Source of the DNA: an uncultured Acidobacteriota bacterium | Lineage (GTDB): Bacteria > Acidobacteriota > UBA6911 | Direction: 5' to 3' | DNA: 60,452 bases | Assembly (NCBI GenBank): GCA_964613495.1 | Contig: CAZTHE010000005.1 | Coordinates: 1 to 60,452 of the forward strand | Part shown: one piece after another, positions 5,032 to 58,598 of the stretch | How positions within the stretch are numbered: position 1 is the stretch's first letter | How the letters are laid out: every line of letters starts with the position of its first letter | The notes under the pieces: model-generated | The model's database searches: none | The model's input: only the letters and a program-made list of their open reading frames with translations | Told to the model about the DNA's origin: nothing | Made by a program: the position numbers and the translations under genes

Positions 5032-5038
5032 GCAGAAA

Positions 5039-22644: not shown

Positions 22645-23106
22645 CTATTTGCCCTTGCCCCCGCGGGCGCACAGCGCGCGCCCGACGACGCCGCATCCGC
22701 CGCCGCCGGTGGGGGAAATGCTCGATCCGCCGTAGCCGAAATTGAACATCCAGGCATCGCCGAGGGTATTCTTCGACCCGGACCAGACGTTGCCCGACTG
22801 CACGTTGATGGGCTCCCTGGCCTTGTACTGCTTCTTCAGGCTCCTGTCATACAGGCCTTCCAGCTCCTCGAACGTCGGCAGCCGCCAGTCCGTGTGACCC
22901 CCCAGCGTCAACTCCTCGCAATGCGCGTTGGCCTGGTTCCAGTTCAGATCGACGCCATTGTCCTCGACGGTCCACATCAGACCGGTCGAGGTGTCCTCCC
23001 AGGTTTTTCCGGCTTCCTGGGCCACCGCCGACTGCGCCGCCGCGAAAAGCAGGAAAACCATCAATAAGGATACCGCCCGGCGATCGAGAAACCTTTGTGA
23101 GGACAT
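22645..23106 (-). CDS. DUF1566 (Lcl C-terminal, C-type-lectin-like) secreted protein
   Basis: This is the C-terminal 153 codons of the artefactual 1588-aa ORF. MSSQRFLDRRAVSLLMVFLLFAAAQSAVAQ signal peptide, then GLMWTVEDNG...HTDWRLPTFEELEGLY. Confidence 0.8.
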   Translation of the reverse strand: MSSQRFLDRRAVSLLMVFLLFAAAQSAVAQEAGKTWEDTSTGLMWTVEDNGVDLNWNQANAHCEELTLGGHTDWRLPTFEELEGLYDRSLKKQYKAREPINVQSGNVWSGSKNTLGDAWMFNFGYGGSSISPTGGGGCGVVGRALCARGGKGK

Positions 23107-23307
23107 AAAACCGCTCCTTGAAAAAAGCTGCGCCTGTTCGGCCTGCTCCGGCCGCCCAGCAGAATAAGCAATACGGGCCCGCCCTGCAATCAATTCTTTG
23201 CAGCCGCCGCCCGGCCTGATTTTATCGCATCGAATCGTGTAACATCCCGCCGTCTTTTGCCATGATATATCCCTGACAGCCTGGCGGCATTTCATCCGGG
23301 AGGACGC

Positions 23308-24957: not shown

Positions 24958-25158
24958 AGCCCGATGGAGACGCATCCCACGGGACAAGGGCAGAATAGGA
25001 TTGCCGATGACAACGGCGACGATTCGCTGGTAAGATTCCTCTCTATTGGAGGAGGTAGAATAGTGGACACGGATCAATGCGCCTGCACGGGCAAGACACT
25101 GGCCCGGCTCGTACGCCCCGCGGTGCCGGCGCTCCTCGCCCCCGGGGGGGAAAAATCG

Positions 25159-27372
25159 ATGAGAACGAGCGGCAAATCCGATCAGTGCATGCGCATCAGG
25201 CGCCTTCTGCGCCTCTGGGCCTGCCTGATATTCCTGATCCATCCCGCCCTTGCGCAGGACGCCGGAACGGATCCGCAGAAACAGGCCGCGGGAGAGGAGC
25301 AGGCGCGCCTGACGGCCGAACACGTGACGATCACGGTCACGGCGCGGAAAGAACCCGAACCGGCGCTGTCGATCCCGCTCAGCGTTACCGCCGTCCCGGA
25401 GACCGCACTGCGGGACCAGGCCATTCGCGCCGTGAAGGACGCCGCCCTGTTCGCGCCCAACGTGATCATCAACGAATTCACGGCCAGGGCGGTCAGCAAT
25501 CCGTTCTTCAGGGGCATCGGGGGGAGCCCGGCCAATCCCGGGGTCAGCACGTTCATCGACGGCGTCCCGCAGTTGAACGGATTCTCTTCCAACATCGAAA
25601 TGGCCGACGTCGTCCAGGTGGAGTTCGTGCGCGGCCCCAGCGGATCCCTCTTCGGCCGCAACACGGCCGGCGGCCTGATCAACATCACCAGCCGCCCGGA
25701 ATCCGAAACCTGGGCTACGCAGGTCCAGGGGGCTTTTGGCAACTACGGCTACCGCGACGTCCGGGGATCGGTTGCCAGCCCGCTTCTCAAGGAGCGTTTC
25801 AGTTTCAACCTGGCGGGCGGCTATTCCGGACGGGACGGCTATACGACCAACGATCTCAACGGCGGCGATCTCGACAAACGGGCCGCCGGTTTCGGCAAGG
25901 CGCAGCTCTTCCTGAGAATAAGCGACAAATGGAAGGCCCGTTTGATCTTCACGGGCGAACGGGACCGCGACGGGGACTACGCGCTGGGAGACCTCGGATA
26001 CATCCGCGAGAATCCGAACCACGTAAGCCGCGACTTCGAGGGATTTTCGCACCGCTGCGTGGGATCGACCACGTTCCGGCTGGACCGCGAGGGAGCCTCG
26101 GTTGACTTTTCCTCCATCTCGGGAGGCCTCTGGTGGAGTAACGACGTCTTCACCGACCTGGACTACCAGACCGCCACGTTGTCGAACGGCGGCCTCTTCG
26201 CGACCAGGAAAAACCGGGAGGACCAGTACCAGTTCACCCAGGAATTCCGCTTCTCTTCCTCCGGGAGCCGCGCGATCTCCCTGGCGGATTCGGTGAGCCT
26301 GCGCTGGCAGGCGGGCCTGTTCCTCTTCGCGCAGGACTACGAGCAGGACGCGGCGAACGACATTTCCAGCATCTACGGCTTTTTCGATCCGATGGTGAGC
26401 ACCTCCGCCAGCGACCTGAACGACTGGGGATTGGGCGTCTACGGGCAGGCGCAATTCACCTTCTGGAACAGGCTGCACATCACGGCCGGGCTGCGCTTCG
26501 ACCACGAAGACAAGGAAGCGAAGCTCGGACCCTCGCGCGACCTCGCCGACAGGTTCGAGGACAGCTTCTCGGAAGCCTCGCCGACATTCAACGTCGCGTA
26601 TCAGCTTCCCGGAAGCCACATGGGCTATGTATCCGTCGCCAGGGGATACAAGGCCGGCGGCTTCAATCCGGCGCCTACGGGACTGCCGGCTCCGGCCGGA
26701 ACGGGATCCTACGGCCCGGAGCGCACCTGGAATTATGAGTTGGGACACAAGGCCCGGTGGCTCGGGAACCGTCTGGAGTCGATCGTGGCGCTCTTTTACA
26801 TCGACTGGGACAGCCTGCAGCTCAACCAGCAGATCCCTTTCAGCGGCGGGCAGTACTTCATCGGCAACGCCGGCGCCGCCAACAGCAAAGGCGTGGAAGT
26901 CGAGACGCGTTTTTACGCGTTTCCCTGGTGGGAGGTGTTCGGGATGGTCGGGTACACGCGCGCGCGCTTTCTCGGCGGCAGCACGGCGCTCAATTCGAAT
27001 CTCGGCGTGGACGAGGAGGTGGGAGGGAACACGCTTCCCTACGCGCCGACGTTCAACTCCAACATGGGGACGCAGATTTCGTGGGCGCCTTCGAACCGCG
27101 TATCGCTGTACCTGAGGACGCAGGTTTCGCTCACGGGCGATTTCCTGTATGACGCCTCCAACGCGATGGGGCAGGACACCTATTCCCTGACCAGCTTCCG
27201 CGGCGGCGTACGCGGCCGGCGCTGGTTCGCCGAGGGATGGGTCGACAACGCCTTCGACACGCGCTACGTGCCGATCGCCATTCCCTACGCCCAGTTGGGG
27301 GCGCCGTCGGGCTACGTCGGCGAGACCGGCGCTCCAGCAACCTACGGGGCGCGGGCGGGAATCCATTTTTAA
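25159..27372 (+). CDS. TonB-dependent receptor
   Basis: Start at MRTSGKSDQCMRIRRLLRLWACLIFLIHPALAQ. Plug VQVEFVRGPSGSLFGRNTAGGLINI. Terminal YGARAGIHF. Confidence 0.9.
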   Translation: MRTSGKSDQCMRIRRLLRLWACLIFLIHPALAQDAGTDPQKQAAGEEQARLTAEHVTITVTARKEPEPALSIPLSVTAVPETALRDQAIRAVKDAALFAPNVIINEFTARAVSNPFFRGIGGSPANPGVSTFIDGVPQLNGFSSNIEMADVVQVEFVRGPSGSLFGRNTAGGLINITSRPESETWATQVQGAFGNYGYRDVRGSVASPLLKERFSFNLAGGYSGRDGYTTNDLNGGDLDKRAAGFGKAQLFLRISDKWKARLIFTGERDRDGDYALGDLGYIRENPNHVSRDFEGFSHRCVGSTTFRLDREGASVDFSSISGGLWWSNDVFTDLDYQTATLSNGGLFATRKNREDQYQFTQEFRFSSSGSRAISLADSVSLRWQAGLFLFAQDYEQDAANDISSIYGFFDPMVSTSASDLNDWGLGVYGQAQFTFWNRLHITAGLRFDHEDKEAKLGPSRDLADRFEDSFSEASPTFNVAYQLPGSHMGYVSVARGYKAGGFNPAPTGLPAPAGTGSYGPERTWNYELGHKARWLGNRLESIVALFYIDWDSLQLNQQIPFSGGQYFIGNAGAANSKGVEVETRFYAFPWWEVFGMVGYTRARFLGGSTALNSNLGVDEEVGGNTLPYAPTFNSNMGTQISWAPSNRVSLYLRTQVSLTGDFLYDASNAMGQDTYSLTSFRGGVRGRRWFAEGWVDNAFDTRYVPIAIPYAQLGAPSGYVGETGAPATYGARAGIHF

Positions 27373-27431
27373 CGCCGCGGGCGGAAAGGCACGGGACTTG
27401 CGCGACCACATTCCTGCTGGGCGCCGAATCG

Positions 27432-28603
27432 GTGGATGCCCTTGGGCTGAAGGTAATTCTCATTACCCGGGGCATCCATGTCCCGTCGGAGGAGACCTAC
27501 AGGATACTGGGCGAGAGCCATCGCTTTTCGTCGAACCCTCTCGAGTGCAATTGCCTGATCCTGCCCGGCGGCGTCGTGGTTCATGCGGCCGACGCCGGCC
27601 CGGCCTCGCCTTTCCGGCTGGAGCCCGGCCTCGCGGGAAACGCGCGGCTGACCTATAACGGTGCGCCTGTCACGGACGTATCCTTTCCGGCCGCAACGGA
27701 TTTCTACCGCCGAAGCACCTCGAGCGGCAGACCTTTCCTCGGGATGGCGGTGCTGCAGGGGCTGGATGTGCTTTCCTTCCCCTATCTCTGGCCCTTCAAT
27801 TACGCGCGCGCCGGCCGTGCGTGCCAGTTCTGCCACTGCGGGGGGTTCAGCGAACAGCCCGCCCATGCGGGGAGTCCGCCCCCCCCTCCCCCACGGCCAA
27901 AGACATGGCGGATGTCGTCGAATATGCGGTCAAGCGCGAACGGCTCGCCCGCCATATCCAGATTACGGGCGGTTCGCTGGGAAGCCCGGAGGCGGAGTGC
28001 CATCTGGCGCGTGAAATGTTGAACTCCATCGGAGACATCCCCGGTTTCGATCGTTCGGCCAGGGAAATAACGGTCTTCACGTCACCGCCGGAGGATCCCG
28101 CCCAGATCGACGGGCTGTTCGAATCGGGGGCCGACCGTGTCGCGTGCGACATCGAAATCTGGGACGACGAATTGGCGGCACGCATATGCCCGGAAAAGCG
28201 CCGGCCCGGAAGCCGGGAGCGCCATCTCAGGACGCTGACGCACATCGCCGAAAAATACGGACCCAACAAGGCGTGCAGCGCCTTCGTGATCGGGCTCGAG
28301 CCGGCGGAGAGCTTTCTCGAGGGCGCGGAATTTCTCGCCGGCCGGGGGATCGTCCCGAGCCTGTCGATCTGGATGCCGCACGGCCGGCCCGTCCTGGGCA
28401 GGACCGAGGCGCCGGGACTGGACTATTACCGGAAGATCCGCGACGGGATCTCCGGGATTTTCGCCAAATACAATATCGAACCGCCCGGGGGCGCCGGGTT
28501 CAACGTCTGCATCTGCCGCGACGTGCACAATGAGAGGACGCTCGCCGGCTGGCCGCAGCATCCCCTCCACGCAATTCCTTCAAACCGAATCGTCCTCAAT
28601 TAA
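27432..28603 (+). pseudogene. Radical-SAM-like Fe-S enzyme gene interrupted by a frameshift in a poly-C tract
   Basis: Frame 3 reads ...RAGRACQFCHCGGFSEQPAHAG. After C8-T-C5 (27879-27892), frame 2 continues SPTAKDMADVVEYAVKRERLARHIQITGGS... The two ORFs overlap and read as one protein. Confidence 0.45.
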
Positions 28604-32330: not shown

Positions 32331-34961
32331 TCACAGCTGAACGACATTCGCCTCGCCGACGTTGGCGTACCTTTCCGGCATGCAGGTGAACACGATGATC
32401 TGGCAGCATTTGGCCGCCCTGGACAGCACCGCCCCCACGAGGTGCAGCCTCTGCGGATCGGTGTACCCGAGCGCGTCATCCAGAATGAGCGGCGTGCCTT
32501 CCCTGTCCGCCACGATCATGGAGCAGGCCAGCCGGAAGACGAGCGAGAGCTGCTCTTTCGTGCCGCCGCTCAGCGACTCGAACGGCACGGAGACGCCGTC
32601 GAGCCTGCGGCTGGCGATCTGCAGGTCGTCGCCGATTTCCACGCCGAAGGAATCGTCGAACACCAGGCGCCCCAGCGCCTCGACTTTCTCCTTCAGCGGA
32701 GCCACATAGGCGCGGCGCACCCGGTCGCGCTCTTCGCGCATGGTCTCGAACAGGCACTTCGCCGCCTGCGCCCGCCGCGCCAGCGACGCGTTCCCGGCCG
32801 CCAGCCTTTCGGCGTTCGCCCGGGCCGCCTGCAGCTTTTCGTGCAGCCCCTCCTCTCCCTGCATCTTCAACCGCGTCTGCACTTCGGTCATTTCGGTCTG
32901 CGCGGCGCCCCGGCGCTTCTGCGTCGTCAGCAGCGATCCCCGGGCCGTGTCGTCCAGCAGCCGCACCCTCTCCGGATTCCTGGCCTCGAGCATCGCCTCG
33001 GAATCGCGCACGTTCGCCTCTTCCGCCGCCACGGCGCCGATCGCCTTCTCCAGCTCGCCGTCCACGGCTTCGTCGGCGAGGCTCTTGCGCGCCCGGCCGA
33101 GATTTTCGCCCGCCTGCTCGAGGTCGCGCGACAGCAGCTCGATCTTCACCTTCAGCTCCTGGTGCTTCCCGTTCAGCCCGTCGCGCACCGTGCGCGCCGC
33201 TTCGAACGCGTCGCGCGCGGCATCCCACGCTGCATTCGCCTCTTTGCAGAAGGACTCGGCGCCGGCCTTTTCGGCCTTCGACGCTTCCAGGTCGGGCGCG
33301 ATCGGCGGCTCCGCGGCGCGGCGCTCGAGATAGGCGGGGACGCTCTGCTGCAAACCGCGCAGTTTCCGGTCGAGTTCCTCGTAGCTGAGGTCACGCAGCG
33401 TTTCCTTTTCGACCCGCTCCAGCTCTTCCAGCTGCCGCTTCGCCTTTTCGTGTTCTTCGTAAGCCGCCTGCGCCTCTTCGGGAGTGGACACGCCCGCCTT
33501 GGCGCACGCCTTTTCCAGGGCGAGCCTGACTTCTTCCACCTTCTGCGCCAGCGCTTCGGCGCTCGAGCCGGCGGCGATTTCGATTTCGAGCAGCTCCGGC
33601 AGGCTCAGCTTCAGCTTTTCGGGCACGGAAAACGTCCGGGTTTCCCCTTGGCCGATCCGCGTCTCTTCGGAATCGACGATCAGGCGGCAATCGGCCAGGG
33701 CGCGCAGCCGGACGCCGGGCGCGGCCGTGGCGAGCTGGGCGCCGGCCATGAGCAGTTCGCGCTCGGCGTTGCGGATCGACTTGAGCTTGCGCTCGTCGAC
33801 CTTGTTGGCTGCGAGCGTCTGCCCGGCTTCGGCCGCCCGCTGCCGCGCCGCGTCGATGCGTTCCTTGCGCTCCTGCATCTGTTCGAGGTGCAGGCGGTTA
33901 TTGTAGTAGTCGAAATCGGCCCGCCGCAGCTCGAGGACCGTGTCGGCCTCCTTGCGCTCCTGTTCGGCGGCGGCAAGAACCTCCTTCGCCCGGGCGAATT
34001 CGTCCTCGGCGCGCTTCAAGGATTCGGAGGAAATCTGGAATTCCTCCTGGAGTCCCTTGCGCTCCCGGTCGGCATTGGCGACCGCATCGATGAGCCCCTT
34101 GCGGTGCTCTTTTTCCTTCCGCGCCGCCTGCGCCGTCTTCCGCGCCGACTCGAGTTTGAGCCGCGCCTCCGACAGGACCTTTTCCAGCGCGGCGATCTCT
34201 TCGAGCGACAATTTGTATCGGTCGACTTCGGCCGTCTGTTCCGCTTCCTGTTTCTTCAGCCGGGCCAGTTCCTGCTGCAGGACGGCGGCGCGTTCGATGT
34301 CCTGTTCGAGATCTGCAAGGACCCGGGCGAAACGCGCGGATTCCGCCTCGGCGGCCGCCACGGCATTGCGCGATTCGTTCAGCTCTTTCTTCTCTGCCCC
34401 GCGCTCGGTGTAGTAGCGCAGGAATTCCTCCCGCACGGTTTCGAACAGGTCCTCCTGGCGCGGATCGGCCGACTGGCCGCCGGCGGCCTTATCGAGCGCG
34501 GCGGACAGCGAGGTCTGGCTGGCGAGCGACGGCTGCCGCACCGCGTCTCCCTGCTGAATGGTCAGCGCCTTCCACAGGGTGACGTCGAGGGTCTCTTCGA
34601 GAATGGCGGCGGCGCGGTCGTGCGCCTCGCGCCCGGTGAGGTTTTCGGCTTTTGGCCGGGCGATGGCCAGCCGCGTCTCCGGCTTTTTGTGGAACCGCTT
34701 GAAATAGGTGAAGCGGTAGGGCCCGCTCTCGGCCTCGAGCTCGATTTCGGCCCCTTCGTCGCGGTGGACGGGGCGGACGGCTTCGACCGCGCGGTGTTTG
34801 CTGTTGTCGGGGTATTCGAACAGGAGCCCGATGGCCTCGCCGAGGCTCGTCTTGCCGGCCTCGTTGGGCCCCTGGATGAGGGTGATGCCGAGCGGGCTGA
34901 AGCGCACTTCGGCGGAAGGCACGCCGCGGTAGTTGGCGATGCGGAGCCGGAGGAATTTCAT
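32331..34961 (-). CDS. SbcC/YhaN-like SMC-type ATPase
   Basis: Walker A GPNEAGKTS. Approximately 600 aa of coiled coil. Signature FESLSGGTKEQ. Walker B LILDDALGYTD. Confidence 0.85.
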   Translation of the reverse strand: MKFLRLRIANYRGVPSAEVRFSPLGITLIQGPNEAGKTSLGEAIGLLFEYPDNSKHRAVEAVRPVHRDEGAEIELEAESGPYRFTYFKRFHKKPETRLAIARPKAENLTGREAHDRAAAILEETLDVTLWKALTIQQGDAVRQPSLASQTSLSAALDKAAGGQSADPRQEDLFETVREEFLRYYTERGAEKKELNESRNAVAAAEAESARFARVLADLEQDIERAAVLQQELARLKKQEAEQTAEVDRYKLSLEEIAALEKVLSEARLKLESARKTAQAARKEKEHRKGLIDAVANADRERKGLQEEFQISSESLKRAEDEFARAKEVLAAAEQERKEADTVLELRRADFDYYNNRLHLEQMQERKERIDAARQRAAEAGQTLAANKVDERKLKSIRNAERELLMAGAQLATAAPGVRLRALADCRLIVDSEETRIGQGETRTFSVPEKLKLSLPELLEIEIAAGSSAEALAQKVEEVRLALEKACAKAGVSTPEEAQAAYEEHEKAKRQLEELERVEKETLRDLSYEELDRKLRGLQQSVPAYLERRAAEPPIAPDLEASKAEKAGAESFCKEANAAWDAARDAFEAARTVRDGLNGKHQELKVKIELLSRDLEQAGENLGRARKSLADEAVDGELEKAIGAVAAEEANVRDSEAMLEARNPERVRLLDDTARGSLLTTQKRRGAAQTEMTEVQTRLKMQGEEGLHEKLQAARANAERLAAGNASLARRAQAAKCLFETMREERDRVRRAYVAPLKEKVEALGRLVFDDSFGVEIGDDLQIASRRLDGVSVPFESLSGGTKEQLSLVFRLACSMIVADREGTPLILDDALGYTDPQRLHLVGAVLSRAAKCCQIIVFTCMPERYANVGEANVVQL

Positions 34962-36085
34962 GCCACCCTCCTTGCCAGCCGCAGCAGCAGCATCAGGGCG
35001 TCGCGGGCCGCCGGAGGCGCGTCGCCTCCCGCCTGGATGGAGGCGCGCAGCCGCTCTACGGTCGCGTCGGCGAAGCCCGAGAAGCCGAGGTCGGCGAAAT
35101 CGGCGTCTTCGGGCACGGCCACAAGCCCTTCGTCCCGCACCTCGAAGGCGGCGAACAGATCTCCGGCGGCGGCCAGGCTCCTATCGAGCGCCTCCCGCGC
35201 GGACAGGGCGAGCGACCCGGCGAGTTCCAGCCGGACGACCGTCCGCTCTTTGTTTTCGATCGCCTCGAGCCACGCGGCCAGGAGCGCCACGTCTTCGGCC
35301 GCATTGACTTCCGCCTCGTGCCGGAGGAATTGCCACTGGCCGACCCGGACTTCCCTGGCAGCGGCGCCGGCGGCATCGACGTCGACGACGAGGGCGTAGC
35401 CGGACCGTATCTCGGAAAAGTCGGTCGTCTCGGGCGTCCCGGAGTACCAGACCCGGCCGTTTTCGCTCAGGCCCGTAGCGGAATGCCGGTCGCCCAGCGC
35501 CGCGTAATGGATCCGCCCGTCGGCGAGAGCGGCGTCGAGCGCCGCCAGTTCGATGACGCCGGCCGCCTCGGGATCCGGCGCGAGCCGGTCGACGGCGCCG
35601 TGGGCCGCGCAGATGCGCACGACATCGTTTGCCGGGGCGAGCGCCTCGAGGGCTTCCGCGGCGGGGTTGACGACGGGCCGCTTGGAGGTCCAGACGCCGC
35701 CCACCAGTTCGACGTCGTCCGCCGGGCGGACGGGGAGGGCTTTTTCGAGGATATGGACGTGCGCCGGCTTGCGTTCGAGGAAGGCGCCCGAGCGGTAGAC
35801 GGACGCGGCGTTGAGCGGATCGTGGTTTCCCGGCAGGATGTAGACGGGCACGGGGACGTCCTTGAGCGCTTCGAGCGCGCGCGCCACGGTCCTGCGGTCC
35901 ACCTGGTTCGATTCGAACGCGTCGCCGCAGACAAGCAGGAACCGGCAGTTCTCCTCTTTTGCGACGCGCCCCATCGCCCGGATGGCGTCGAATCGCGCCT
36001 GCGCGTACCGCTCCTGCGCCCCTTCGGACAGGAACCGCCGCGTCATCCCCAACTGCCAATCGCTCGTATGCAAGAATCGCGTCAT
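34958..36085 (-). CDS. SbcD/YhaO-like metallophosphoesterase nuclease
   Basis: Start at MTRFLHTSDWQLG, preceded by GGGGAGGGG. Motifs CGDAFES and LPGNHD. ATGA overlap with the ATPase gene. Confidence 0.85.
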   Translation of the reverse strand: MTRFLHTSDWQLGMTRRFLSEGAQERYAQARFDAIRAMGRVAKEENCRFLLVCGDAFESNQVDRRTVARALEALKDVPVPVYILPGNHDPLNAASVYRSGAFLERKPAHVHILEKALPVRPADDVELVGGVWTSKRPVVNPAAEALEALAPANDVVRICAAHGAVDRLAPDPEAAGVIELAALDAALADGRIHYAALGDRHSATGLSENGRVWYSGTPETTDFSEIRSGYALVVDVDAAGAAAREVRVGQWQFLRHEAEVNAAEDVALLAAWLEAIENKERTVVRLELAGSLALSAREALDRSLAAAGDLFAAFEVRDEGLVAVPEDADFADLGFSGFADATVERLRASIQAGGDAPPAARDALMLLLRLARRVA

Positions 36086-36129
36086 CGCAACCCCCCTCCC
36101 CGGCCGTGCCCCCAGCTTATTACACCCCA

Positions 36130-36146
36130 GTGACATCCGGGGTCAC
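36130..36146 (-). promoter_or_regulatory. Shared promoter/operator motif GTGAC-N7-GTCAC (copy 1, drives the sbcDC-like operon)
   Basis: The reverse complement contains TGACCCCGGATGTCAC. TAATAA (36117-36122, minus strand) lies 18 nt downstream, then an RBS and ATG 36085. Confidence 0.55.
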
Positions 36147-36292
36147 AGCACAGGACGATTCCTGATAGATGATTTTAACTTGCCAGCACCCACTTGCGGC
36201 CTGCGCTTCTGCAATACACGATAGATTACGACACTAAATAATATTTTGCTTTAATCCCCAAGCAAGGCAATTATATTAGGATCGTGGAAATT

Positions 36293-38293
36293 ATGTATCC
36301 AAACCAAGACGCAATCATATCGCCGCTGCGCGCTTGGTATAGCGCCAGAATAGCAGATTTCATGCTTTGCCGCCCCGAATCCGTTCTTGGATGCCTTGCA
36401 GGGCATTCCGATTTTGCCTTGAATGAGAACCAGCGGGATGCCTGGATCGCGGAGATCAGGATTCTGCATGCCGAACTGAGGGGAATCGAGGGCCACCTAT
36501 TTCTCGAATTCAGTATTCCGCGCATGGGTCGACGCGCGGACGCGGTGCTAATTGTCAATCAGGCAATATTCGTCATTGAGTTCAAAATTGGACAAAGGCA
36601 CTTCGAGCGATCAGCCCTTAATCAGGTCTGGGATTACGCGTTGGACCTTAAAAACTTTCATCAGGGCAGTCATGATGCCGCCATCTTTCCCATATTGGCT
36701 ATTGATAAATCGAGAAGCGCTCAACCCACCGAGTTTTGTAGAGATCCCGATGGCGTATTCCATCCCATTCCGACTGTTTCGTCGAATCTGCGGACGGTTC
36801 TGTTTTCAGCCCTCAGAAACGCGAGCGGGCCTGCGCTGAATGCCGCCGAATGGGCCGGAGCACCCTACCATCCGACGCCTACTATAATTGAGGCCGCGCG
36901 AGCGCTTTACTCACAGCATTCTGTTGAAGCCATTGCGCGTTTCGATGCCGGCGCGAAGAACCTGCAAACTACCTCAGGCAGAATCGAGGAGTTGTCTCAT
37001 GAAGCCCGCAGTAGAAAACGCAAGTTGATCTGTTTTGTTACAGGCGTACCGGGCGCAGGAAAGACCCTGGTTGGATTGAACCTGGCTGCGAAAAGAGAGG
37101 ATTTGAGTTCATCGCATGCGGTTTTTCTTTCAGGGAATGGCCCGCTGGTTGCCGTGCTGCGGGAAGCGTTGACTCGTGACGAGTATCAGCGGCGGAAGAG
37201 CTTGGGAGAACGCACACGAAAGGGCGTGATCAAGGAGAGCGTAAAGAGCTTTATTCAAAATGTTCACCACTTTCGCGACGAGGGTTTGATCGATGACCGC
37301 GCGCCAAATGAGCATATCGTCATATTTGATGAGGCCCAGCGGGCGTGGAATTTGAAAAAGACAGCCGATTTCATGAACCGGAAAAAGCGGCGGCCGGGCT
37401 TTTCGCAGTCAGAGGCGGAGTTCCTTATTTCCTGTATGGACAGGCACAGCGACTGGGCCGTTATTGTCTGCCTGGTTGGGGGAGGTCAGGAAATCAATAC
37501 CGGCGAAGCCGGGATCGAAGAATGGGTAAGCGCTATTCACCGGAATTTTCCGGAGTGGCGCATGTTTATATCTGACAGGCTCACGGATTCTGAATATGCC
37601 GCCGGAAAGACGCTGGAGATTATCCAGAAACGCCCGTCCACGCACTTTGACAATTCGCTCCATCTTGCCGTTTCCATGCGTTCTTTCCGCGCAGAACATG
37701 TATCTCAATTCGTCAAAGCGCTGCTCGACTGCGAACAGTCTGAGGCCCGGAAGGTTTTCGAAATGATAGATGCGCGCTACCCCATCGCTGTTACGCGCAA
37801 CCTTGATTCTGCGAAGCAATGGATCCGAAGTCATGCCAGAGGTTCCGAAAGATATGGTCTTATGGCTTCATCCAAAGCCATGAGGCTGAAACCTCACGCC
37901 ATCGATATCAGGGTGAATGTCGATCCTGTTCACTATTTCCTGAACCAGCCGGAAGATCCGCGGTCGAGTTTTTATCTTGAAGATGCGGCTACGGAATTCC
38001 AGGTTCAAGGCTTGGAACTGGATTGGACGTGCGTCACCTGGGACGGCGATTTCCGGTTTAACGGATCCGGGTGGAATTTCCATGACTTTCGCGGCCATCG
38101 ATGGGTCAATATGGCCAATGCGGATAACAAGACCTATCTTCGCAACGCCTATCGGGTTCTTCTTACGCGCGCCCGGCAAGGCATGGTGATCTTTGTCCCA
38201 CCGGGAGACTCCCGGGATCCGACTCGCCCTCCCGGCTTTTATGGTCCCACTTTCAAATACCTGAGAGATTTGGGAATTCCTGAAATCGGATAA
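36293..38293 (+). CDS. DUF2075-type protein: PD-(D/E)XK nuclease-like N-terminus plus P-loop SF1-like helicase/ATPase
   Basis: RRADAVLIVNQAIFVIEFK (D...ExK), Walker A GVPGAGKT, Walker B VIFDEAQRAW, and C-terminal YRVLLTRARQGMVIFVP. AT-richer than the flanks. Confidence 0.8.
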   Translation: MYPNQDAIISPLRAWYSARIADFMLCRPESVLGCLAGHSDFALNENQRDAWIAEIRILHAELRGIEGHLFLEFSIPRMGRRADAVLIVNQAIFVIEFKIGQRHFERSALNQVWDYALDLKNFHQGSHDAAIFPILAIDKSRSAQPTEFCRDPDGVFHPIPTVSSNLRTVLFSALRNASGPALNAAEWAGAPYHPTPTIIEAARALYSQHSVEAIARFDAGAKNLQTTSGRIEELSHEARSRKRKLICFVTGVPGAGKTLVGLNLAAKREDLSSSHAVFLSGNGPLVAVLREALTRDEYQRRKSLGERTRKGVIKESVKSFIQNVHHFRDEGLIDDRAPNEHIVIFDEAQRAWNLKKTADFMNRKKRRPGFSQSEAEFLISCMDRHSDWAVIVCLVGGGQEINTGEAGIEEWVSAIHRNFPEWRMFISDRLTDSEYAAGKTLEIIQKRPSTHFDNSLHLAVSMRSFRAEHVSQFVKALLDCEQSEARKVFEMIDARYPIAVTRNLDSAKQWIRSHARGSERYGLMASSKAMRLKPHAIDIRVNVDPVHYFLNQPEDPRSSFYLEDAATEFQVQGLELDWTCVTWDGDFRFNGSGWNFHDFRGHRWVNMANADNKTYLRNAYRVLLTRARQGMVIFVPPGDSRDPTRPPGFYGPTFKYLRDLGIPEIG

Positions 38294-38341: not shown

Positions 38342-40009
38342 TCAGGGGCTCCACCGGTCGATTCCTCGCTGATGGGCCGTAACCTCCACTGATTCCAGCA
38401 TCACATCGAATGTCTTTGACAAATCAAATGTCGGCCCGGCCGTGAAGCGAAGGGATTCCCTTTCGAATCTCTTCGGATACGCCCGGTGCAGGGCATCCCA
38501 GTAATCCAGGACGACGCTTCTCCTCTTCCTGAGGAGAGAATTGCTGGGGAGCCGGTCCGCCTTTGCACGGTTGGCGCTCGAGGCGGCGGGAAGCAGGTTC
38601 CAGAGATCGTTATTGCGCCAGAGCGAGAAGGGGAGCACGTGGTCCACTTCAAATGAGCGAGACAGCGGAACACCAGTCCATACGCATTCTTTGGACGGCA
38701 GATCCCGGTAAATGTTCCTGGCTTCCGTGACACTGCGGTCGAATGTGGGAATGCGCAGGAGCCGGTCGATGATCTGGCTTGGGCTGAGGGCTTGTCCTGA
38801 GATCTCGGACGTCAGTTCGCTCCAGCGAAGCAGAAGCGCGTCCTGGATCCAGTGACCGGAAAGGCATAGTTCCCGCCAAACGTCGGCGCCCATGAGCAGA
38901 CGCCGCGTACGGCGGTCATAGGTGAATATGTTACTGTTCGTGCTGGAAGAGCGGCCCGCATGCGTCACGGGGCCCTGGATGATGGTCGCGGTCAGCTTAC
39001 TGCAGACCCGATCCTGAAGCGATTTCTCCTCGGCATTGAGCGCGTCGTTTCTGACGGCAGCGGCGAAAGCGTCGAGCCCGCCGGTTCGCCGGAAGGAGTC
39101 AATCATCGTCTCGAGATCGCGGCGGAAGGCGATGGGCTTCCGGCTGCCGCGGATTTCGCCTCGGATCTGCGGGATGAACGCTTCAGCGTTATCCATCAGC
39201 GGCCAGTAGTAATAGATCCAACGTTCGGCGATCTCGCGCATCGGCACGCCCACCGTGCCGTCCGCATTCCATGTCGCCGCATGATAATTGGTCAGTGCGA
39301 TGTCGCATAGCGCCCGGAACAAGGCGAGCTTGTAGGTGGCTGTTTTCTTATCCCGGTTCAGTATTCCCTCGATCCGGTCGATGGGGCGCAGCACATCGTC
39401 CGATCGCAGGGCGAAAAGCAGCGTCGTCCAGCGGACGTTCCGGCCAAGAGTGTCCTGATTGTCCCATCGGCCGATACGCTGAAACCCGAGTCGCTCAAAG
39501 AGGAGTTCCACTGATTCCGGAACCAGTGGAGTGTAAAGGCGGCCCTTCTCGTCGCGGCCATCTTCACCCACGCCGGGCCGTTCTCCCGGGAAGGAGAGGA
39601 GCAATCGACCGCTGGGTTTAAGGAGGTTACGGAGGTCGAAGGCCGCGTCGAACTGTCTCTCCGCGGGAAGATGCTGAAATACGGCGGAGCAAAGAATGCC
39701 ATCAAATTTTCTTTGTATGTTCGCAGACAGGTCCGGGAGGGCGGCCGACCAGATGCGCTCGGACATTTCCGGGTGTTTCGACAGGTAGAGGGAGCGCATG
39801 CCGGCGCTCGGCTCAGTGCCGTAGATTGCGTACTCCTCTTTGACCAGAATATCGAGATCGCGTCCCGATCCGGAACCGACATCGAGAATTTGCGCTCCCG
39901 GAGGAAAAGCCAGCCGAAAATATTGCTCCACGCCGCCGCGGGCGGATTCGTAAAGACTGGAAACCTCCCCGGCGTTGTCGTCGTAATAGCGGATCGTGCG
40001 TTCGTCCAT
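38342..40009 (-). CDS. Fusion protein: class I SAM methyltransferase, unknown central domain, HNH nuclease
   Basis: Motif I ILDVGSGSGRD (39861-39900). Central KKTATYKLALFRALCDIA region. C-terminal EVDHVLPFSLWRNNDLWNLLPAASSANRAKADRLP. An alternative TTG start is at 40069. Confidence 0.75.
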   Translation of the reverse strand: MDERTIRYYDDNAGEVSSLYESARGGVEQYFRLAFPPGAQILDVGSGSGRDLDILVKEEYAIYGTEPSAGMRSLYLSKHPEMSERIWSAALPDLSANIQRKFDGILCSAVFQHLPAERQFDAAFDLRNLLKPSGRLLLSFPGERPGVGEDGRDEKGRLYTPLVPESVELLFERLGFQRIGRWDNQDTLGRNVRWTTLLFALRSDDVLRPIDRIEGILNRDKKTATYKLALFRALCDIALTNYHAATWNADGTVGVPMREIAERWIYYYWPLMDNAEAFIPQIRGEIRGSRKPIAFRRDLETMIDSFRRTGGLDAFAAAVRNDALNAEEKSLQDRVCSKLTATIIQGPVTHAGRSSSTNSNIFTYDRRTRRLLMGADVWRELCLSGHWIQDALLLRWSELTSEISGQALSPSQIIDRLLRIPTFDRSVTEARNIYRDLPSKECVWTGVPLSRSFEVDHVLPFSLWRNNDLWNLLPAASSANRAKADRLPSNSLLRKRRSVVLDYWDALHRAYPKRFERESLRFTAGPTFDLSKTFDVMLESVEVTAHQRGIDRWSP

Positions 40010-40082
40010 TGGGACCCGATTGTACTGCCTCCGGCCTGAGGCTCGCAAGCGGAGAGGAATTTCCGGCAAAGCAGGGGAAGCG

Positions 40083-41039
40083 TCAGATTTCCGATTCCAG
40101 TTTGTCGACCTCGTCCATAAGAAGCTGCTTTTCGCGCGGGCCGGGCATTTCGCCTTTGTGGATCATGTCGTTGCGCACCTGGCGGAGGGACTGCCAGACG
40201 GCCTTTCGCACCGGGGTGACCGGACCGTAGTTCGGGAGGGCGTCGATCACCTCCTCGAGCGAAACCTGCGCGCCCGCCTCCGGGAGGTGCAGCTGCGCCG
40301 CAAGCCTGCGGATCAATGTCTCGAAACAATGGCAGGCCACGAGGACGGCGATGTCCGGCTTCACCGCGGACAGCGCCTTCGCCAGCTTCGCGTCGGAAAG
40401 CTCCGCGAGCGGCGCCACCAGGTTGTTCGCCCGCAGCTGCAGCATGAAATTGTCCTCGCGGTACATCCTTAAAATCTCCGGGTTCCGGTACTGGCCGAAA
40501 CATTTCTCGTGCAGCACCCACAACGCCATGTCCGCGTCCGCCACGCGCGCAAAACCCGCGTGCCGCCGGATCTCGCGCAGGTTGCCGAGATAGGCCAGGT
40601 ACGTCTCCACCAGGTCGCGGCCGTGCCGGATGTCCAGCATGTGCTGGATCGGCGAGCTGAAAATCGCATAGTGCTCCGGACGGATGAACCTCAGGATGAT
40701 CGAGGTCAGCTCGATCGATTTGAATATGTGCAGCAGCTGGCGGACCGTCTCCGGTTCGTTGCTTTCCGGCAGATTCCAGAAATCGAACGTCGCCTGCGTG
40801 AGCGCCGGCTCGATCTTCTCCCTGGGCGGAAATACCCAGAAGCGCTTGAACCACCAGTGCTCGGGCGATTCGAAATATTCCAGGTCGGAATACCTCAAGG
40901 GCGTGCTGCGCCGCAACCCGCGGACCTTCTCCTCCACCGAGGCGAGGTCGAAGTCGGCGCCGTATTTCATCCTGCAGACCGCGGCGAAATCATTCAGACA
41001 TGATTGCAGGTAGTTCCCTGCCAGGCCGTCCGGCGGCAT
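40083..41039 (-). CDS. Hypothetical protein with a C-terminal HEPN-like R-x4-H motif
   Basis: SLRQVRNDMIHKGE, with the R codon at 40173-40175 and the H codon at 40158-40160. N-terminal approximately 200 aa unassigned. Upstream gene of the pair. Confidence 0.55.
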   Translation of the reverse strand: MPPDGLAGNYLQSCLNDFAAVCRMKYGADFDLASVEEKVRGLRRSTPLRYSDLEYFESPEHWWFKRFWVFPPREKIEPALTQATFDFWNLPESNEPETVRQLLHIFKSIELTSIILRFIRPEHYAIFSSPIQHMLDIRHGRDLVETYLAYLGNLREIRRHAGFARVADADMALWVLHEKCFGQYRNPEILRMYREDNFMLQLRANNLVAPLAELSDAKLAKALSAVKPDIAVLVACHCFETLIRRLAAQLHLPEAGAQVSLEEVIDALPNYGPVTPVRKAVWQSLRQVRNDMIHKGEMPGPREKQLLMDEVDKLESEI

Positions 41040-41117: not shown

Positions 41118-41174
41118 CCCTGTGCGATAAAGTGGTTATCTGGGAGTGCCTAAAACTGCGAGAGGAGGATTTCC

Positions 41175-41408
41175 ATGAGTGAAAATGTCCACACGACCTG
41201 TAATTGGTGCGGTAAAGATATTGCCTACGGGAATGCCCAGGTCACAATTAACCGCAATATTGAACAGATGGACAGCACGGAGGAATATCCGGAGGGAGAG
41301 GTCACGGTAATTCAAAGCGACGTCCTGCTGGAACTGTGCGCCGAGTGCGGGAATAAACTCGACACCGAGACGATCACCAAAATATTGCTTGCCATAAAGC
41401 CGAAATAG
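41175..41408 (+). CDS. Small zinc-ribbon protein
   Basis: 77 aa with two CxxC pairs (CNWC and CAEC). Strong GAGGAGG RBS. Confidence 0.6.
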   Translation: MSENVHTTCNWCGKDIAYGNAQVTINRNIEQMDSTEEYPEGEVTVIQSDVLLELCAECGNKLDTETITKILLAIKPK

Positions 41409-41465
41409 TCGATGCTGGGGAGACAGGCAATCAAATATTCCGGTCCTGGCAGGGGACAGCCCAAA

Positions 41466-42935
41466 ATGCCTTATAAAAAGCATTTGCTGACGAAAAGCGC
41501 CTTCATCAACGCCCTCAATTGCGAGCGGTTTTTCTGGGTGTACCAGAACGAGCGGGAGCGGTTGCAGGAGCCCGATGAGGCCCAGCAGGCCCTCTTCGAT
41601 CAGGGACACAAGGTCGGCGACATGGCAAAAATGCTGTACCCCGACGGTATCGAGATCGACTGGGACGCCGGGCACGAGGCCGGCATCGCGCAGACCGCCG
41701 GTGTTCTCGGGCAGCGACGGCCCGTCTTCGAGGCCGGATTCCAGCACCGGCTGACCCATGCGCGCGCCGACATCCTCGCGCCTTCCTCCAACGGCAGATG
41801 GGACCTCATCGAGGTCAAGAGTTCCACCGGGGTCAAAGAAGAACACCTCGACGACGTGGCTTTTCAAAAGCACGTCTACAACGCCGCGGGCATCCGCATC
41901 GGCCGGTGCTTCGTGATGCATGTGGACAAGGGCTATGTGCGCAGGGGGGAACCGGATCCAAAGGCCCTGTTTGCGCGAACGGATGTTACGACCGAAATCA
42001 AGCCGCTGGCCGGCGATATGCCCGCGCGGATCAAAAGGCTGCTTTCCATAATGTCCAAGGCCAAAGCCCCGGCCCCCAACCTCGGGACCCATTGCGCCAA
42101 ATGCCCGCTCTACGACGAATGCTGGTTCTTTCTGCCCGAGCGCCACGTTTTTCAACTGAACCGCGCCCGGCAGAAGGCCTATCAACTTATGGAGGAGGAC
42201 ATCCTGGCCATCCGGGACATCCCGGATGACTATCCGCTGACGGCCAGGCAATCCATTCAAGTCGCATGCGAGAAGGCCGGGAAACCGCACGTTCAACCCC
42301 GGCAGATCCAGGCGTTTTTAGGCTTGCTGAAATACCCGCTTCATTTCCTCGACTTCGAGACTTTCATGGCGGCGATCCCCCCGTATGACGAATCGAGACC
42401 CTACGAACAGGTGCCGTTTCAATACTCGCTTCACGTCATCCCGGCCCCGGGGCGGCGGGCGACGCATTATTCGTACCTGTCCGACGGGAAAGCCGATCCG
42501 CGGCCGGAGGTCCTCTCCACGCTCAAAAAACGGCTCGGACGCACCGGCTCGATCGTCGCCTACAATGCCGCATTCGAAATGCGCGTGCTGCGATCGTGCG
42601 CCGGCCATTTCGACAAATATGCCGCCTGGTGCGAGTCGCTGATGCCCCGCTTCGCCGATCTGATGGCGCCCTTTCGCGATTTCCACTACTATCACCCCGA
42701 TCAGGAGGGAAGTGCATCGCTGAAAGCCGTCCTGCCGGCGATGACCGGGAAGTCCTACGATAATCTTGCGATATCCGACGGCGCGACCGCCGGCCTCAGG
42801 TTCTGCGAAATGGCATTCGGCGGCGCGGCGGAACCCGGGAAGAAGCAAATCCGCAGGGCCCTGGAAGCCTACTGCCGCCAGGACACCCAGGGCATGATCG
42901 ATATCCTCAAAAAGCTGCGAAACCTGGGCAAATAA
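41466..42935 (+). CDS. DUF2779 protein: Cas4-like Fe-S PD-(D/E)XK nuclease plus DEDD/RNase-H-like exonuclease domain
   Basis: C...CAKCPLYDEC cysteine set, RADIL...WDLIEVK nuclease motif, then HFLDFETF, AYNAAFE and CRQDTQGM exonuclease-like motifs. Confidence 0.8.
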   Translation: MPYKKHLLTKSAFINALNCERFFWVYQNERERLQEPDEAQQALFDQGHKVGDMAKMLYPDGIEIDWDAGHEAGIAQTAGVLGQRRPVFEAGFQHRLTHARADILAPSSNGRWDLIEVKSSTGVKEEHLDDVAFQKHVYNAAGIRIGRCFVMHVDKGYVRRGEPDPKALFARTDVTTEIKPLAGDMPARIKRLLSIMSKAKAPAPNLGTHCAKCPLYDECWFFLPERHVFQLNRARQKAYQLMEEDILAIRDIPDDYPLTARQSIQVACEKAGKPHVQPRQIQAFLGLLKYPLHFLDFETFMAAIPPYDESRPYEQVPFQYSLHVIPAPGRRATHYSYLSDGKADPRPEVLSTLKKRLGRTGSIVAYNAAFEMRVLRSCAGHFDKYAAWCESLMPRFADLMAPFRDFHYYHPDQEGSASLKAVLPAMTGKSYDNLAISDGATAGLRFCEMAFGGAAEPGKKQIRRALEAYCRQDTQGMIDILKKLRNLGK

Positions 42936-42967
42936 TTCCTGATATTTATAGAGCGGGCCTACGGCCC

Positions 42968-43051
42968 TCCTCCGTGTAATCCGTGCAATCCGTGGCTAAT
43001 AAAGGCTTTGCGCCTTCCGGCCCAGCCGCAAAATTCGTGCAATTCGTGGCC
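42968..43051 (+). repeat. Composite CGTG-box element (copy 2)
   Basis: CTCCTCCGTGTAATCCGTGCAATCCGTGGC, spacer, then AAAATTCGTGCAATTCGTGGCC. The 28-nt core is identical to copy 1. Confidence 0.85.
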
Positions 43052-43180
43052 ACAGTAGATTATGCCCTCCGGACTTCGGCAACGGCGTTCATGAATGTGG
43101 GTTCGAGGTCACACCGTGGGTGAGAAAGAGGACGCCGAATTAACATTTCGCCGGAATGGCATTATCGACAAGTAGTCTAT

Positions 43181-43567
43181 TCAAGGCGCAGAGGGACTTC
43201 CGGGCTTGCGGCTGATGCGGATGTGTCCGGGTTGCACGACAACAAAAGAGTCCGGGAGAGTGATTTTGTTCTCGCGGATAACCCGGACAACAGATTGAAC
43301 CATGGACTGACGGGAATTGCCAGGAAAACGAATAAGTATGACTCCCGCCGATTCAGCGCGGCTGACAAAAACCAGCCAGCCGAAATCCTTGTCTTCCGTC
43401 AGCAAAATGCGCTTTTCTACATGGGCAAGGTTTATCAAGGTTCGGTCATCAGAGCGGGGCATAGCTTCGCTGACGGCCACGACATCGCAACCCTCGGCTC
43501 GCAAAGCCCGTACAACGGCAAAATCGCAGCTTTCATCGGCCAGGAAACGCAGAGAGGCGGGCATCAT
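43181..43567 (-). CDS. DUF5615-family PIN-like toxin
   Basis: LRFLADESCDFAVVRALRAEGCDVV ... LLTEDKDFG. Overlaps the upstream DUF433 gene. Confidence 0.8.
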   Translation of the reverse strand: MMPASLRFLADESCDFAVVRALRAEGCDVVAVSEAMPRSDDRTLINLAHVEKRILLTEDKDFGWLVFVSRAESAGVILIRFPGNSRQSMVQSVVRVIRENKITLPDSFVVVQPGHIRISRKPGSPSAP

Positions 43568-43791
43568 GCGGTGTGGAACACGATAGTTTCGTGGGCGAGA
43601 GAATCGGCGGCAAAGGCCAGAGCTGCCTGGATGTCGGCGGCTGTAAGGTTTGGATAAGCATCCAGCAGGTCGGCTTCCGTGGCGCCCTCACTCAATTTAC
43701 GCAGAATGAGTTCGACTGGGATGCGGGTCCCGCGTATAACGGGTTTCCCGAGCATTACCTCCGGATTAACCTCCACTCTATCATTCACCAT
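43564..43791 (-). CDS. DUF433-family antitoxin
   Basis: Start at MVNDRVEVNPEVMLGKPVIRGTRIPVELIL, the DUF433 signature. Confidence 0.8.
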   Translation of the reverse strand: MVNDRVEVNPEVMLGKPVIRGTRIPVELILRKLSEGATEADLLDAYPNLTAADIQAALAFAADSLAHETIVFHTA

Positions 43792-43908
43792 AGGCTCAAC
43801 TCCAGAATGGAAACACTCCATGAATTATAATGCGAAATTAATGTCCCGCAAACGGTTATCGTGGTTGAAGGGAATTCCGGGAACCGACGAAAAAACTTCA
43901 GGGTGAAT

Positions 43909-58439: not shown

Positions 58440-58598
58440 TGTGCCGCCCCTTGCGGGGCTCATTCCGTGACTCGTGTGGACCCCGGGCTTGCGCCCGGGG
58501 CTACTCACTGCCGCGCCTTCGGCGCTGTCAGGCCCGAAGGGCCGGTATTGAATAGGCCCGGCCGTCAGGCCGGGAGTTGCGAACCAAACCCACGTCTG
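58440..58598. repeat. Cluster of GC-rich hairpins between convergent genes
   Basis: GCCCCTTGCGGGGC, CCCCGGGCTTGCGCCCGGGG, GCGCCTTCGGCGC, GGCCCGAAGGGCC, and GGCCCGGCCGTCAGGCCGGG. Confidence 0.7.

Follow-up and report, generated by a model that had tools for sequence, protein, structure and literature searches.

Among described immune proteins, RAZR (PD-T7-4) is a single protein in which a zinc finger is joined to a DUF4145 HEPN domain, and which acts as an abortive-infection RNase that is activated by phage proteins and cleaves RNA (PMC13017515). The HEPN superfamily has been shown to include DUF4145, which frequently occurs in fusion with defence domains (Anantharaman et al. 2013, PMC3710099). 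Ambrosia, by comparison, comprises five genes, among them an N6 DNA methylase and a type IV HNH nuclease under two-component control (bioRxiv 10.1101/2025.09.30.679545). Here we analyse a locus found on a contig of an uncultured Acidobacteriota bacterium (assembly GCA_964613495.1, contig CAZTHE010000005.1, positions 1 to 60,452; this whole stretch of 60,452 nucleotides is hereafter called the window). Two neighbouring genes of the window encode a HEPN-type protein (gene 1) and a fusion of an S-adenosylmethionine (SAM)-dependent methyltransferase with an HNH nuclease (gene 2). An earlier reading of the DNA letters and their open reading frames (ORFs), which we refer to as the original prediction, had proposed a single defence system encoded by both genes as an operon. 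From a comparison of the loci that carry homologues of either gene, we consider it likely that each is instead a single-gene module in its own right, that the two share a variable defence island, and that they were recently juxtaposed in one lineage and do not constitute a two-gene system. The features of the two genes are as follows.

Gene 1: 40083-41039, minus strand; ORF of 318 residues from an ATG, which an alternative GTG start extends to 41045
Gene 1 N-terminal domain: 40440-41039, minus strand; residues 1-200, no family assigned
Gene 1 C-terminal domain: 40086-40439, minus strand; residues 201-318, HEPN (DUF4145-like), from a PF13643 match
RNDMIH motif of gene 1: 40158-40175, minus strand; R-x4-H, R289...H294 (residues 289-294), read from the sequence
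Spacer between gene 1 and gene 2: 40010-40082, minus strand; 73 nucleotides, with a sigma-70-like site TTGCGA-18-TACAAT at 40048-40019 (consensus match only, 9/12)
Gene 2: 38342-40009, minus strand; ORF of 555 residues from an ATG, a fusion of methyltransferase, unassigned domain and HNH; an alternative TTG start at 40069 adds 20 residues
Gene 2 methyltransferase domain: 39395-40009, minus strand; residues 1-205, class I SAM-dependent, from Pfam and Foldseek
Gene 2 central domain: 38690-39394, minus strand; residues 206-440, about 235 residues, with motifs TATYKLAL, YYWP, PQxxGE and GPV..AG
Gene 2 HNH domain: 38342-38689, minus strand; residues 441-555, beta-beta-alpha-metal type, HNH_4, with D456-H457 at 38639-38644

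Comparison with known systems

That the locus fits no named system, as had been predicted, is what we found: profile scans of PADLOC-DB v2, NCBIfam and Pfam returned no named defence system for gene 1 or gene 2, and the literature searched held no description of a defence gene in which a methyltransferase is fused to an HNH nuclease, the sole text match to 'MTase and HNH' being Ambrosia. Judged by domain architecture, the closest characterised analogue of gene 1 is RAZR/PD-T7-4. Like RAZR, gene 1 is a single chain in which a non-catalytic N-terminal domain is followed by a DUF4145-type HEPN domain with a conserved R...H dyad. The two differ in that the N-terminus of gene 1 is a helical domain of 200 residues whose sequence contains no CxxC pairs, and so no Cys4 zinc ribbon; in the spacing of the motif, which is R-x4-H in gene 1 and R146/H154 in RAZR; and in that gene 1 matches no PADLOC family at E <= 0.1. 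HEPN-fusion Abi proteins (AbiJ-like proteins, or DUF4145 fused to restriction or helicase modules) also combine a variable N-terminal domain with a C-terminal HEPN domain and occur in defence contexts, whereas the N-terminal domain of gene 1 has no Pfam, NCBIfam or PADLOC match (these were general scans, in which AbiJ-NTD and DpnII/MboI-NTD were not individually compared) and no PDB sequence match. From HEPN-MNT toxin-antitoxin pairs the locus differs in lacking a recognisable MNT partner, the neighbours of gene 1 (gene 2, a zinc-ribbon ORF and a DUF2779 gene) having given no nucleotidyltransferase match in Pfam.

For gene 2, the nearest likenesses are to parts of larger systems. Its C-terminus carries the D-H...N...N motif of the Cas9-type HNH domain (HNH_4) and aligns to it at E 1.8e-4 to 1e-5, but gene 2 has neither RuvC, nor guide-RNA-binding lobes, nor a CRISPR context, and its remainder is unrelated to Cas9. 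Type IIG/IIL fusions and the mad2 protein of MADS resemble gene 2 in uniting a methyltransferase and a nuclease in one polypeptide. In the case of MADS there is also a weak PADLOC match to mad2 (gene 2 residues 51-166 against profile positions 284-402 of 492, E 8e-9), which covers the methyltransferase domain only; no other mad component was matched among the proteins scanned in or beside the locus. Unlike the type IIG/IIL enzymes and mad2, gene 2 has a methyltransferase of the small-molecule class I type without DNA-methylase motifs, its nuclease is HNH and not PD-(D/E)XK, no target-recognition domain was identified in it, and its nuclease core also exists without a methyltransferase. Ambrosia shares with the gene-2 loci a methyltransferase linked to an HNH nuclease outside the classical protective pairing, and HNH_2 proteins occur in 19% of gene-2 loci; it differs in being composed of five separate genes with a DNA N6-methylase, a histidine kinase and a response regulator, none of which is present at the window locus. 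Both proteins of the window follow known designs: in gene 1 a HEPN effector is preceded by an N-terminal domain of the variable kind, and in gene 2 an HNH effector is combined with accessory domains that can be exchanged.

The full gene pair is confined to one lineage

We compared 80 species-level loci containing gene-2 homologues and 79 non-redundant metagenome loci containing gene-1 homologues, searching the six-frame ORFs of all loci against domain hidden Markov models (HMMs) built from alignments A1 and A2 at E <= 1e-5 and within at most 10 kb on each side. At least 5 kb of sequence was available for 65 of the 80 gene-2 loci and, when two further look-up loci are added, the upstream flank reaches 1.2 kb or more in 67 of 82; on the gene-1 side, 52 of 79 loci have at least 600 bp downstream. 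A gene-1 homologue was found in none of the 80 gene-2 loci, and a full gene-2 homologue in none of the 79 gene-1 loci outside a clade of at least 95% identity. The full pair occurs only in loci L004 and L005 and in one Logan contig, whose proteins are approximately 96-97% identical to those of the window and whose DNA is 93-97% identical. Relatives of gene 1 with 79-66% identity (L010-L013) have no gene 2 downstream, and in L011-L013 a WYL regulator occupies that place; relatives of gene 2 with 74-66% identity (L089, L092) have other genes upstream, again a WYL regulator in L092. Neither family has a dominant partner among its two nearest neighbours on each side, the commonest neighbouring family accounting for 5 of 150 neighbours of gene 2 and 4 of 149 neighbours of gene 1. 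An apparent downstream partner of gene 1 in 20 loci (cluster 368) was discarded as a set of alternative-frame ORFs in GC-rich DNA.

The surroundings of the pair differ even between close relatives. Between gene 1 and a TPR gene, the window contains a block of 2.7 kb (41123-43870) that comprises a CxxC ORF, a DUF2779 gene and a DUF5615 toxin gene; in L004 and L005, which are 93-97% identical at the DNA level, blastn breakpoints show approximately 300 nucleotides in its place, and the TPR gene is only some 430 nucleotides from gene 1. Since this block is swapped for about 300 nucleotides in near-identical relatives, the island is being reshuffled. Given that the pair is confined to the clade of at least 95% identity, that the next relatives are unpaired and that the island is reshuffled, we interpret the adjacency as a recent juxtaposition and not as a conserved functional unit. 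The claim of one operon-encoded system is therefore not upheld: conservation of the pair as neighbours in other genomes had been named beforehand as the point on which it would turn, and a gene-1 homologue was found in 0 of the 80 gene-2 loci. With this negative result an attractive candidate for a new two-gene system drops out, and the case illustrates how genes that came together only recently in a defence island may look like an operon.

Both ORFs lie in the same direction on the minus strand where the original prediction had placed them, with a gap of 73 nucleotides if gene 2 starts at its ATG and of 13 nucleotides if it starts at the TTG. The sequence MDxxT matching the ATG forms the start of 34 out of 34 aligned homologues, and in a relative with 97% identity the start is called at the same ATG position; because of this we take the ATG and the 73-nucleotide gap to be the real ones. 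The TTG start is rejected, as the homologues begin at the ATG. Judged by the size of their homologue families, both are real genes: more than 1347 homologues of gene 2 were found in a non-redundant collection of 5.8 billion sequences clustered at 90% identity, and gene 1 has 173 homologues, none of which is named. No terminator-like hairpin is predicted in the 73-nucleotide spacer, and since the genes are co-directional, 73 nucleotides apart and free of a predicted terminator between them, they may be co-transcribed here. The sigma-70-like site in the spacer is a match to the consensus, which by itself does not indicate function.

Several observations weigh against our reading of the two genes as independent immunity modules. 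Many contigs are short, with only 34 of the 79 gene-1 loci reaching 5 kb, so that absence is less secure on the gene-1 side. A sensitive follow-up for remote relatives of gene 2, using relaxed HMM thresholds, jackhmmer and hhalign, found a methyltransferase-less relative, consisting of the central domain and HNH (core-HNH), near gene 1 in two independent loci of the 79, L006 and L016 (L027 is the same sequence as the latter). In L006 the core-HNH gene lies 10 nucleotides downstream of the gene-1 homologue (hhalign probability 96.6%, E 6e-10, over the central domain and HNH), within a run of six same-strand genes (4384-12537) that encode a NERD and SLFN-g3/DUF2075-type helicase protein, the gene-1 homologue, the core-HNH, Fic, PLD/ResIII and DUF3427 proteins. 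L006 is the sole locus beyond the window clade that repeats the trio of helicase, gene 1 and HNH. In L016 the core-HNH is 3 kb from the gene-1 homologue. As for a role in defence, no PADLOC family is matched by either protein over its whole length, and the functions of both as immunity genes are deduced from sequence and context. The match of gene 1 to PF13643 (DUF4145, of the HEPN clan; residues 243-313, E 1.9e-4 in Pfam) scores 21.9 bits, slightly under the Pfam gathering cutoff of 23.1 bits, and the best HEPN match of its structural model in Foldseek, the toxin SO_3166 (5yep_C, probability 0.47, E 8), is non-significant. Finally, the licensing or modifying role that we suggest below for the methyltransferase domain of gene 2 is held with low specific confidence.

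One alternative is that the genes do cooperate, possibly together with the DUF2075 helicase, in a facultative two- or three-gene system that is ancient and often lost or rearranged. In such a system the HNH protein would be the effector acting on DNA, while gene 1 would be the sensor or a back-up RNase. Gene 1 is found near a core-HNH in three independent lineages (the window clade, L006 and L016) among approximately 45 gene-1 loci with usable flanks, which is above random expectation. In the first two of these lineages the genes are on the same strand and immediately adjacent, the helicase directly upstream of gene 1 in L006 echoes the one beside gene 2 in the window, and no terminator is predicted between the window genes. 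Against cooperation stand the 0 of 80 gene-2 loci with gene 1, the occurrence of a core-HNH relative in only 2 of the 79 other gene-1 loci, and the promoter-like site inside the spacer; in L016, moreover, two genes lie between the gene-1 homologue and the core-HNH, a DUF2779 gene on the opposite strand and one for HNH_2. The association is also no stronger than that of gene 1 with WYL-WCX regulators, which flank it in 9 of the 79 loci, with TPR genes (5 loci) or with DUF2779 genes (4 loci), in varying orientations, and such a pattern of neighbours in mixed orientation is one of defence-island co-residence. We consider a cooperating system unlikely.

The gene-2 family

Profile and homologue searches place gene 2 in an unnamed family of stand-alone genes with a wide distribution, the core of which is the domain of approximately 235 residues together with the Cas9-like HNH. 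Of the Cas9/McrA-like HNH domain that had been predicted at the C-terminus, the likeness to Cas9 is confirmed by a match of HNH_4 to residues 471-508 (E 4e-7, Pfam) and of Cas9 HNH chains in the PDB to residues 440-545; the segment EVDHVLPF...DRLP is encoded at 38650-38546, counted from the ATG. Each of the residues D456, H457, N471 and N480 is present in 81 of 81 homologues, as are Y226 and K227 of the central domain. PADLOC models match gene 2 over the methyltransferase domain (mad2) and the HNH domain (Cas9 models), and nowhere else. The central domain was rightly predicted to have no known family: it has no Pfam match at E <= 5, the best match of its profile to PDB sequences is a chance match (E 1.6), and it bears no likeness to the HNH_2 proteins that frequently neighbour it (hhalign probability 0.1).

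The N-terminal domain, as predicted, is a class I methyltransferase of the small-molecule type without the motifs of DNA methylases. Methyltransf_23, 12, 11 and 25 match residues 54-197 at E 1e-10 to 6e-7 (Pfam), and the NCBIfam matches are to small-molecule methyltransferases, below threshold. An AlphaFold2 model of gene 2 (predicted local distance difference test (pLDDT) 87.1, predicted template modelling score 0.57) consists of a Rossmann methyltransferase, a mostly helical centre and the HNH domain. In Foldseek, the SAM-bound structures 3h2b, 3e23 and 5ufm match at E 8e-10 to 1.6e-8 with template modelling scores of 0.75-0.80 over the target, and the whole model retrieves methyltransferases only, all of the small-molecule or tRNA type (cg3271, RPA2492, toxoflavin N-methyltransferase, METTL6 and TehB). 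Motif I is well conserved (D43 in 80 of 81 homologues, G45 in 81, G47 and G49 in 78 each), with E or D at position 66 in 81 of 81. No match to N6_Mtase, DNA_methylase or MethyltransfD12 was found among the Pfam, NCBIfam and PADLOC methyltransferase models, and neither the motif IV D/NPPY of DNA amino-methyltransferases nor the PCQ of C5-methyltransferases is in gene 2, where the position reads FDGILCSAV (FDGxLC). With the residues for SAM binding and HNH catalysis intact in 78-81 of 81 homologues, each of a different species, gene 2 is predicted to be catalytically competent.

The best 120 homologues of gene 2 share, almost without exception, one length and architecture, and no name among them is more specific than 'methyltransferase domain-containing protein'. 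The gene is patchily distributed, being found in 301 of approximately 185,000 GTDB species (0.16%; one genome per species), which include members of the Acidobacteriota, Chloroflexota, Planctomycetota, Verrucomicrobiota, Lentisphaerae, Spirochaetes, Synergistetes, Alpha-, Beta-, Gamma- and Deltaproteobacteria, Clostridia (Firmicutes), Actinobacteria and Bacteroidota, as well as a Methanomethylovorans archaeon. The profile of the central domain matches 899 proteins among 1.84 billion representatives of clusters at 50% identity. Among the matches listed, most are of approximately 555 residues, some of about 750 residues, and some of about 360-390 residues starting at the central domain; the methyltransferase is fused N-terminally in most family members, including that of the window, and is missing from some. 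One of the short forms, P0247, is a genuine methyltransferase-less core gene of 357 residues within a contig of 35 kb, and plasmids of Nostoc PCC 7120, Deinococcus and Tolypothrix likewise encode relatives that have no methyltransferase. Relatives of full length, with 28-31% identity, occur on plasmids of Roseomonas, Azospirillum, Sphingobium and Pseudoalteromonas, beside genes for McrBC, VapC, dGTPase and a NERD protein. The forms of approximately 750 residues make up about a fifth of gene-2 homologues and derive mostly from bacteria of the Planctomycetes-Verrucomicrobia-Chlamydiae group (L102, L109, L112, L115, L121, L124, L127-L131, L133, L137, L150 and L159); the one that was scanned, P0245, has a C-terminal LexA-like Peptidase_S24 domain, which hints at activation by self-cleavage. 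Neither the gene-1 nor the gene-2 family was found in the phages of INPHARED or in IMG/VR, and gene 1 was not found among the plasmids of PLSDB. Two small nucleotide-hydrolase neighbours may be recorded here: a HIT-family protein with the motif HAHIHIIP immediately upstream of the core-HNH of L016 (4052-5588), and a NUDIX protein immediately upstream of the full gene-2 homologue of L103 (9629-9997; the same sequence as L002).

The fusion raises the possibility of a new kind of restriction-modification enzyme, complete within the single protein of gene 2, in which, as in type IIG/IIL fusions, the methyltransferase marks host DNA and the HNH domain cuts unmarked DNA. The covalent union of a methyltransferase and a DNA nuclease with both sets of catalytic residues conserved, the frequency of restriction genes among the neighbours of gene 2 and the presence of the family on plasmids all speak for it. 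We nevertheless find this quite improbable: the methyltransferase matches only class I enzymes of the small-molecule and tRNA type (TehB, toxoflavin methyltransferase, METTL6, cg3271), has FDGxLC in place of D/NPPY and matches neither N6_Mtase nor DNA_methylase, while stand-alone cores without a methyltransferase would be lethal if methylation were their only protection. Enzymes of the HNH_2 family are typically modification-dependent, and the presence of one in 19% of the loci would be awkward beside a promiscuous DNA methylase. Since there are stand-alone genes in which the core persists with no methyltransferase attached, it is unlikely that the nuclease is kept harmless by protective self-methylation.

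Within our preferred reading of gene 2 as an independent defence module, we hypothesize that the HNH domain would cut DNA as the effector, that the central domain, which always accompanies it, would bind or position the nucleic-acid target, and that the swappable terminal domains (methyltransferase, S24 peptidase) would regulate the nuclease. The methyltransferase might then be a SAM-dependent licensing module or a non-canonical modifying module, which we favour over a classical host-protecting DNA methylase. A bolder proposal is that the family represents a new class of single-protein immune nuclease with the SAM methyltransferase domain as an infection switch, either by sensing the SAM pool, which phage SAM lyases could for instance cause to collapse, or by making a non-canonical methyl mark through which the HNH domain is licensed, the neighbourhood of helicase, gene 1 and core-HNH in the window clade and L006 being an optional multi-gene version; we regard this as improbable. 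Large and phylogenetically wide as it is, with approximately 900 clusters at 50% identity containing the central domain and 301 GTDB species carrying the fused form, the unnamed family is absent from PADLOC-DB v2 and from the literature searched, and it offers a testable single-gene candidate for defence against phages or plasmids, of which natural domain-deletion and domain-addition variants already exist. We stress that it is one of very many single-gene defence candidates, and that mechanistically there is nothing surprising about it yet.

Gene 1, a probable DUF4145-type HEPN protein

Sequence comparison points to gene 1 as a DUF4145-type HEPN protein. Within its family, PF13643 is matched by 16 of 35 members at E <= 0.01, the best at 1e-7, and one of the 35 matches HepT-like. 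The R-x4-H motif with a polar residue after the arginine, which had been pointed out in the C-terminal region, is indeed there (RNDMIH, 40175-40158) and is conserved: of the homologues that cover the site, 61 of 61 have the arginine, 61 of 61 have N or D next to it, and 58 of 61 have the histidine. E240 is invariant among homologues. Conservation extends into the N-terminal domain, with R117 and P121 present in 80-81 of 81 homologues and E110, D170 and W174 in 74-77 of 81.

The AlphaFold2 model of gene 1 (pLDDT 89.8) is all-alpha and places RNDMIH at the end of a helix spanning residues 276-295. The model does not speak against a HEPN fold around the motif, although a positive structural match to HEPN was not obtained either: beyond the SO_3166 toxin mentioned above, which has the highest probability of all the matches, Csm6 is among the Foldseek matches (E 6.6-8, non-significant), and a search of the PDB and BFVD gave no match with E < 0.6. 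Sequence searches of the PDB gave one chance match (E 0.14) with the gene 1 sequence and none with its profile. The faint glycosylase likeness noted in the original prediction is echoed in Foldseek, where the N-terminal part matches helix-hairpin-helix glycosylases of the AGOG, OGG and MutY types, but is not established, as these matches are non-significant (E 2-9). We consider the N-terminal domain a candidate sensor or nucleic-acid-binding domain; it is new among the N-terminal domains with which DUF4145 HEPN effectors are equipped. By analogy with RAZR/PD-T7-4 and with the AbiJ-like proteins that combine a sensor domain with HEPN, the N-terminal domain would detect an infection cue, upon which HEPN dimers would cleave RNA and arrest the infected cell in the manner of abortive infection.

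In nine loci (L071, L074, L078, L079, L081-L083, L085 and L088), remote members of the gene-1 family that form a branch with 30-38% identity directly follow, on the same strand, genes for RNase II (RNB) and for a FAD oxidoreductase of the DAO type. Some members of this branch consist of the N-terminal domain only (approximately 231 residues) and some are without the HEPN histidine. These features hint at an RNA-related role of the N-terminal domain.

The defence island

The prediction that the locus is richer in AT than its flanks and lies among nuclease, helicase and toxin-antitoxin genes proved accurate on both counts. The GC content is 0.556-0.579 across 36-44 kb, compared with 0.60-0.67 in the rest of the window, and the neighbouring genes are the following.

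SbcCD-like pair: 32331-36136, minus strand; a Metallophos protein of 392 residues and an AAA_23/SMC_N ATPase of 876 residues, with a GC content of 0.67-0.71, far above that of the neighbouring island
DUF2075/Schlafen-group-3-type helicase: 36284-38293, plus strand; PADLOC candidate PDC-S41 (E 4e-274, almost end to end) and SLFN-g3_helicase (E 5e-81)
Small zinc-ribbon-like (CxxC) ORF: 41175-41408, plus strand; divergent from gene 1
DUF2779/Cas4-like nuclease: 41412-42935, plus strand; from Pfam, divergent from gene 1, with homologues in 4 of 79 gene-1 loci and 4 of 80 gene-2 loci
DUF5615 toxin: 43181-43567; within the 2.7-kb block

The helicase gene is convergent with gene 2, from which it is separated by 48 nucleotides, and lies outside any conserved unit; its homologues occur in 5 of the 80 gene-2 loci, in one of which (L092) it is directly downstream on the same strand, and in 1 of the 79 gene-1 loci. 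The most frequent neighbours of gene-2 homologues are HNH_2 (PF13391) endonucleases of approximately 300-320 residues, found in 15 of the 80 loci, about ten times directly adjacent and on either side (the loci include L097, L107, L114, L125, L140, L154, L158, L160, L165 and L168); the window contains none. A type IV-like enzyme composed of PLD, helicase and DUF3427 domains is present in 9 of the 80. Other neighbours of the two families include McrBC, type I restriction enzymes, SspD, DrmMII, PDC-S41, NERD proteins and toxin-antitoxin genes. Both genes are repeatedly found near known defence genes in unrelated genomes, the enrichment being a qualitative one.

That one or both genes instead serve housekeeping nucleic-acid metabolism (RNA modification, repair or turnover), with their location in an island incidental, is suggested by the RNB- and oxidoreductase-linked branch of gene 1 with its occasional loss of the HEPN histidine, by the resemblance of the gene 2 methyltransferase to tRNA and small-molecule enzymes and by ordinary metabolic genes among the neighbours of both families, but we judge it very improbable given the sparse and patchy distribution over many phyla, the location in a variable island of low GC content, in which even near-identical strains differ by indels, the repeated adjacency of restriction, toxin-antitoxin and WYL-regulator genes, and catalytic HNH and HEPN residues that are typical of toxic effectors.

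An SbcCD-like pair also adjoins the gene-2 homologue of L155, from an Acidimicrobiia genome. Elsewhere in the window, two matches to the Acido-Lenti-1 RNA motif (RF01687; 51.5 and 40.7 bits) overlap on opposite strands of a palindrome at 58481-58575; together with the closest relatives of gene 2, they fit an Acidobacteriota host. On the minus strand at 22645-27411 is an ORF of 1588 residues, whose sole domain match is a C-terminal Lcl_C, and which adjoins the gene for a radical SAM protein of 260 residues (27821-28603, plus strand).

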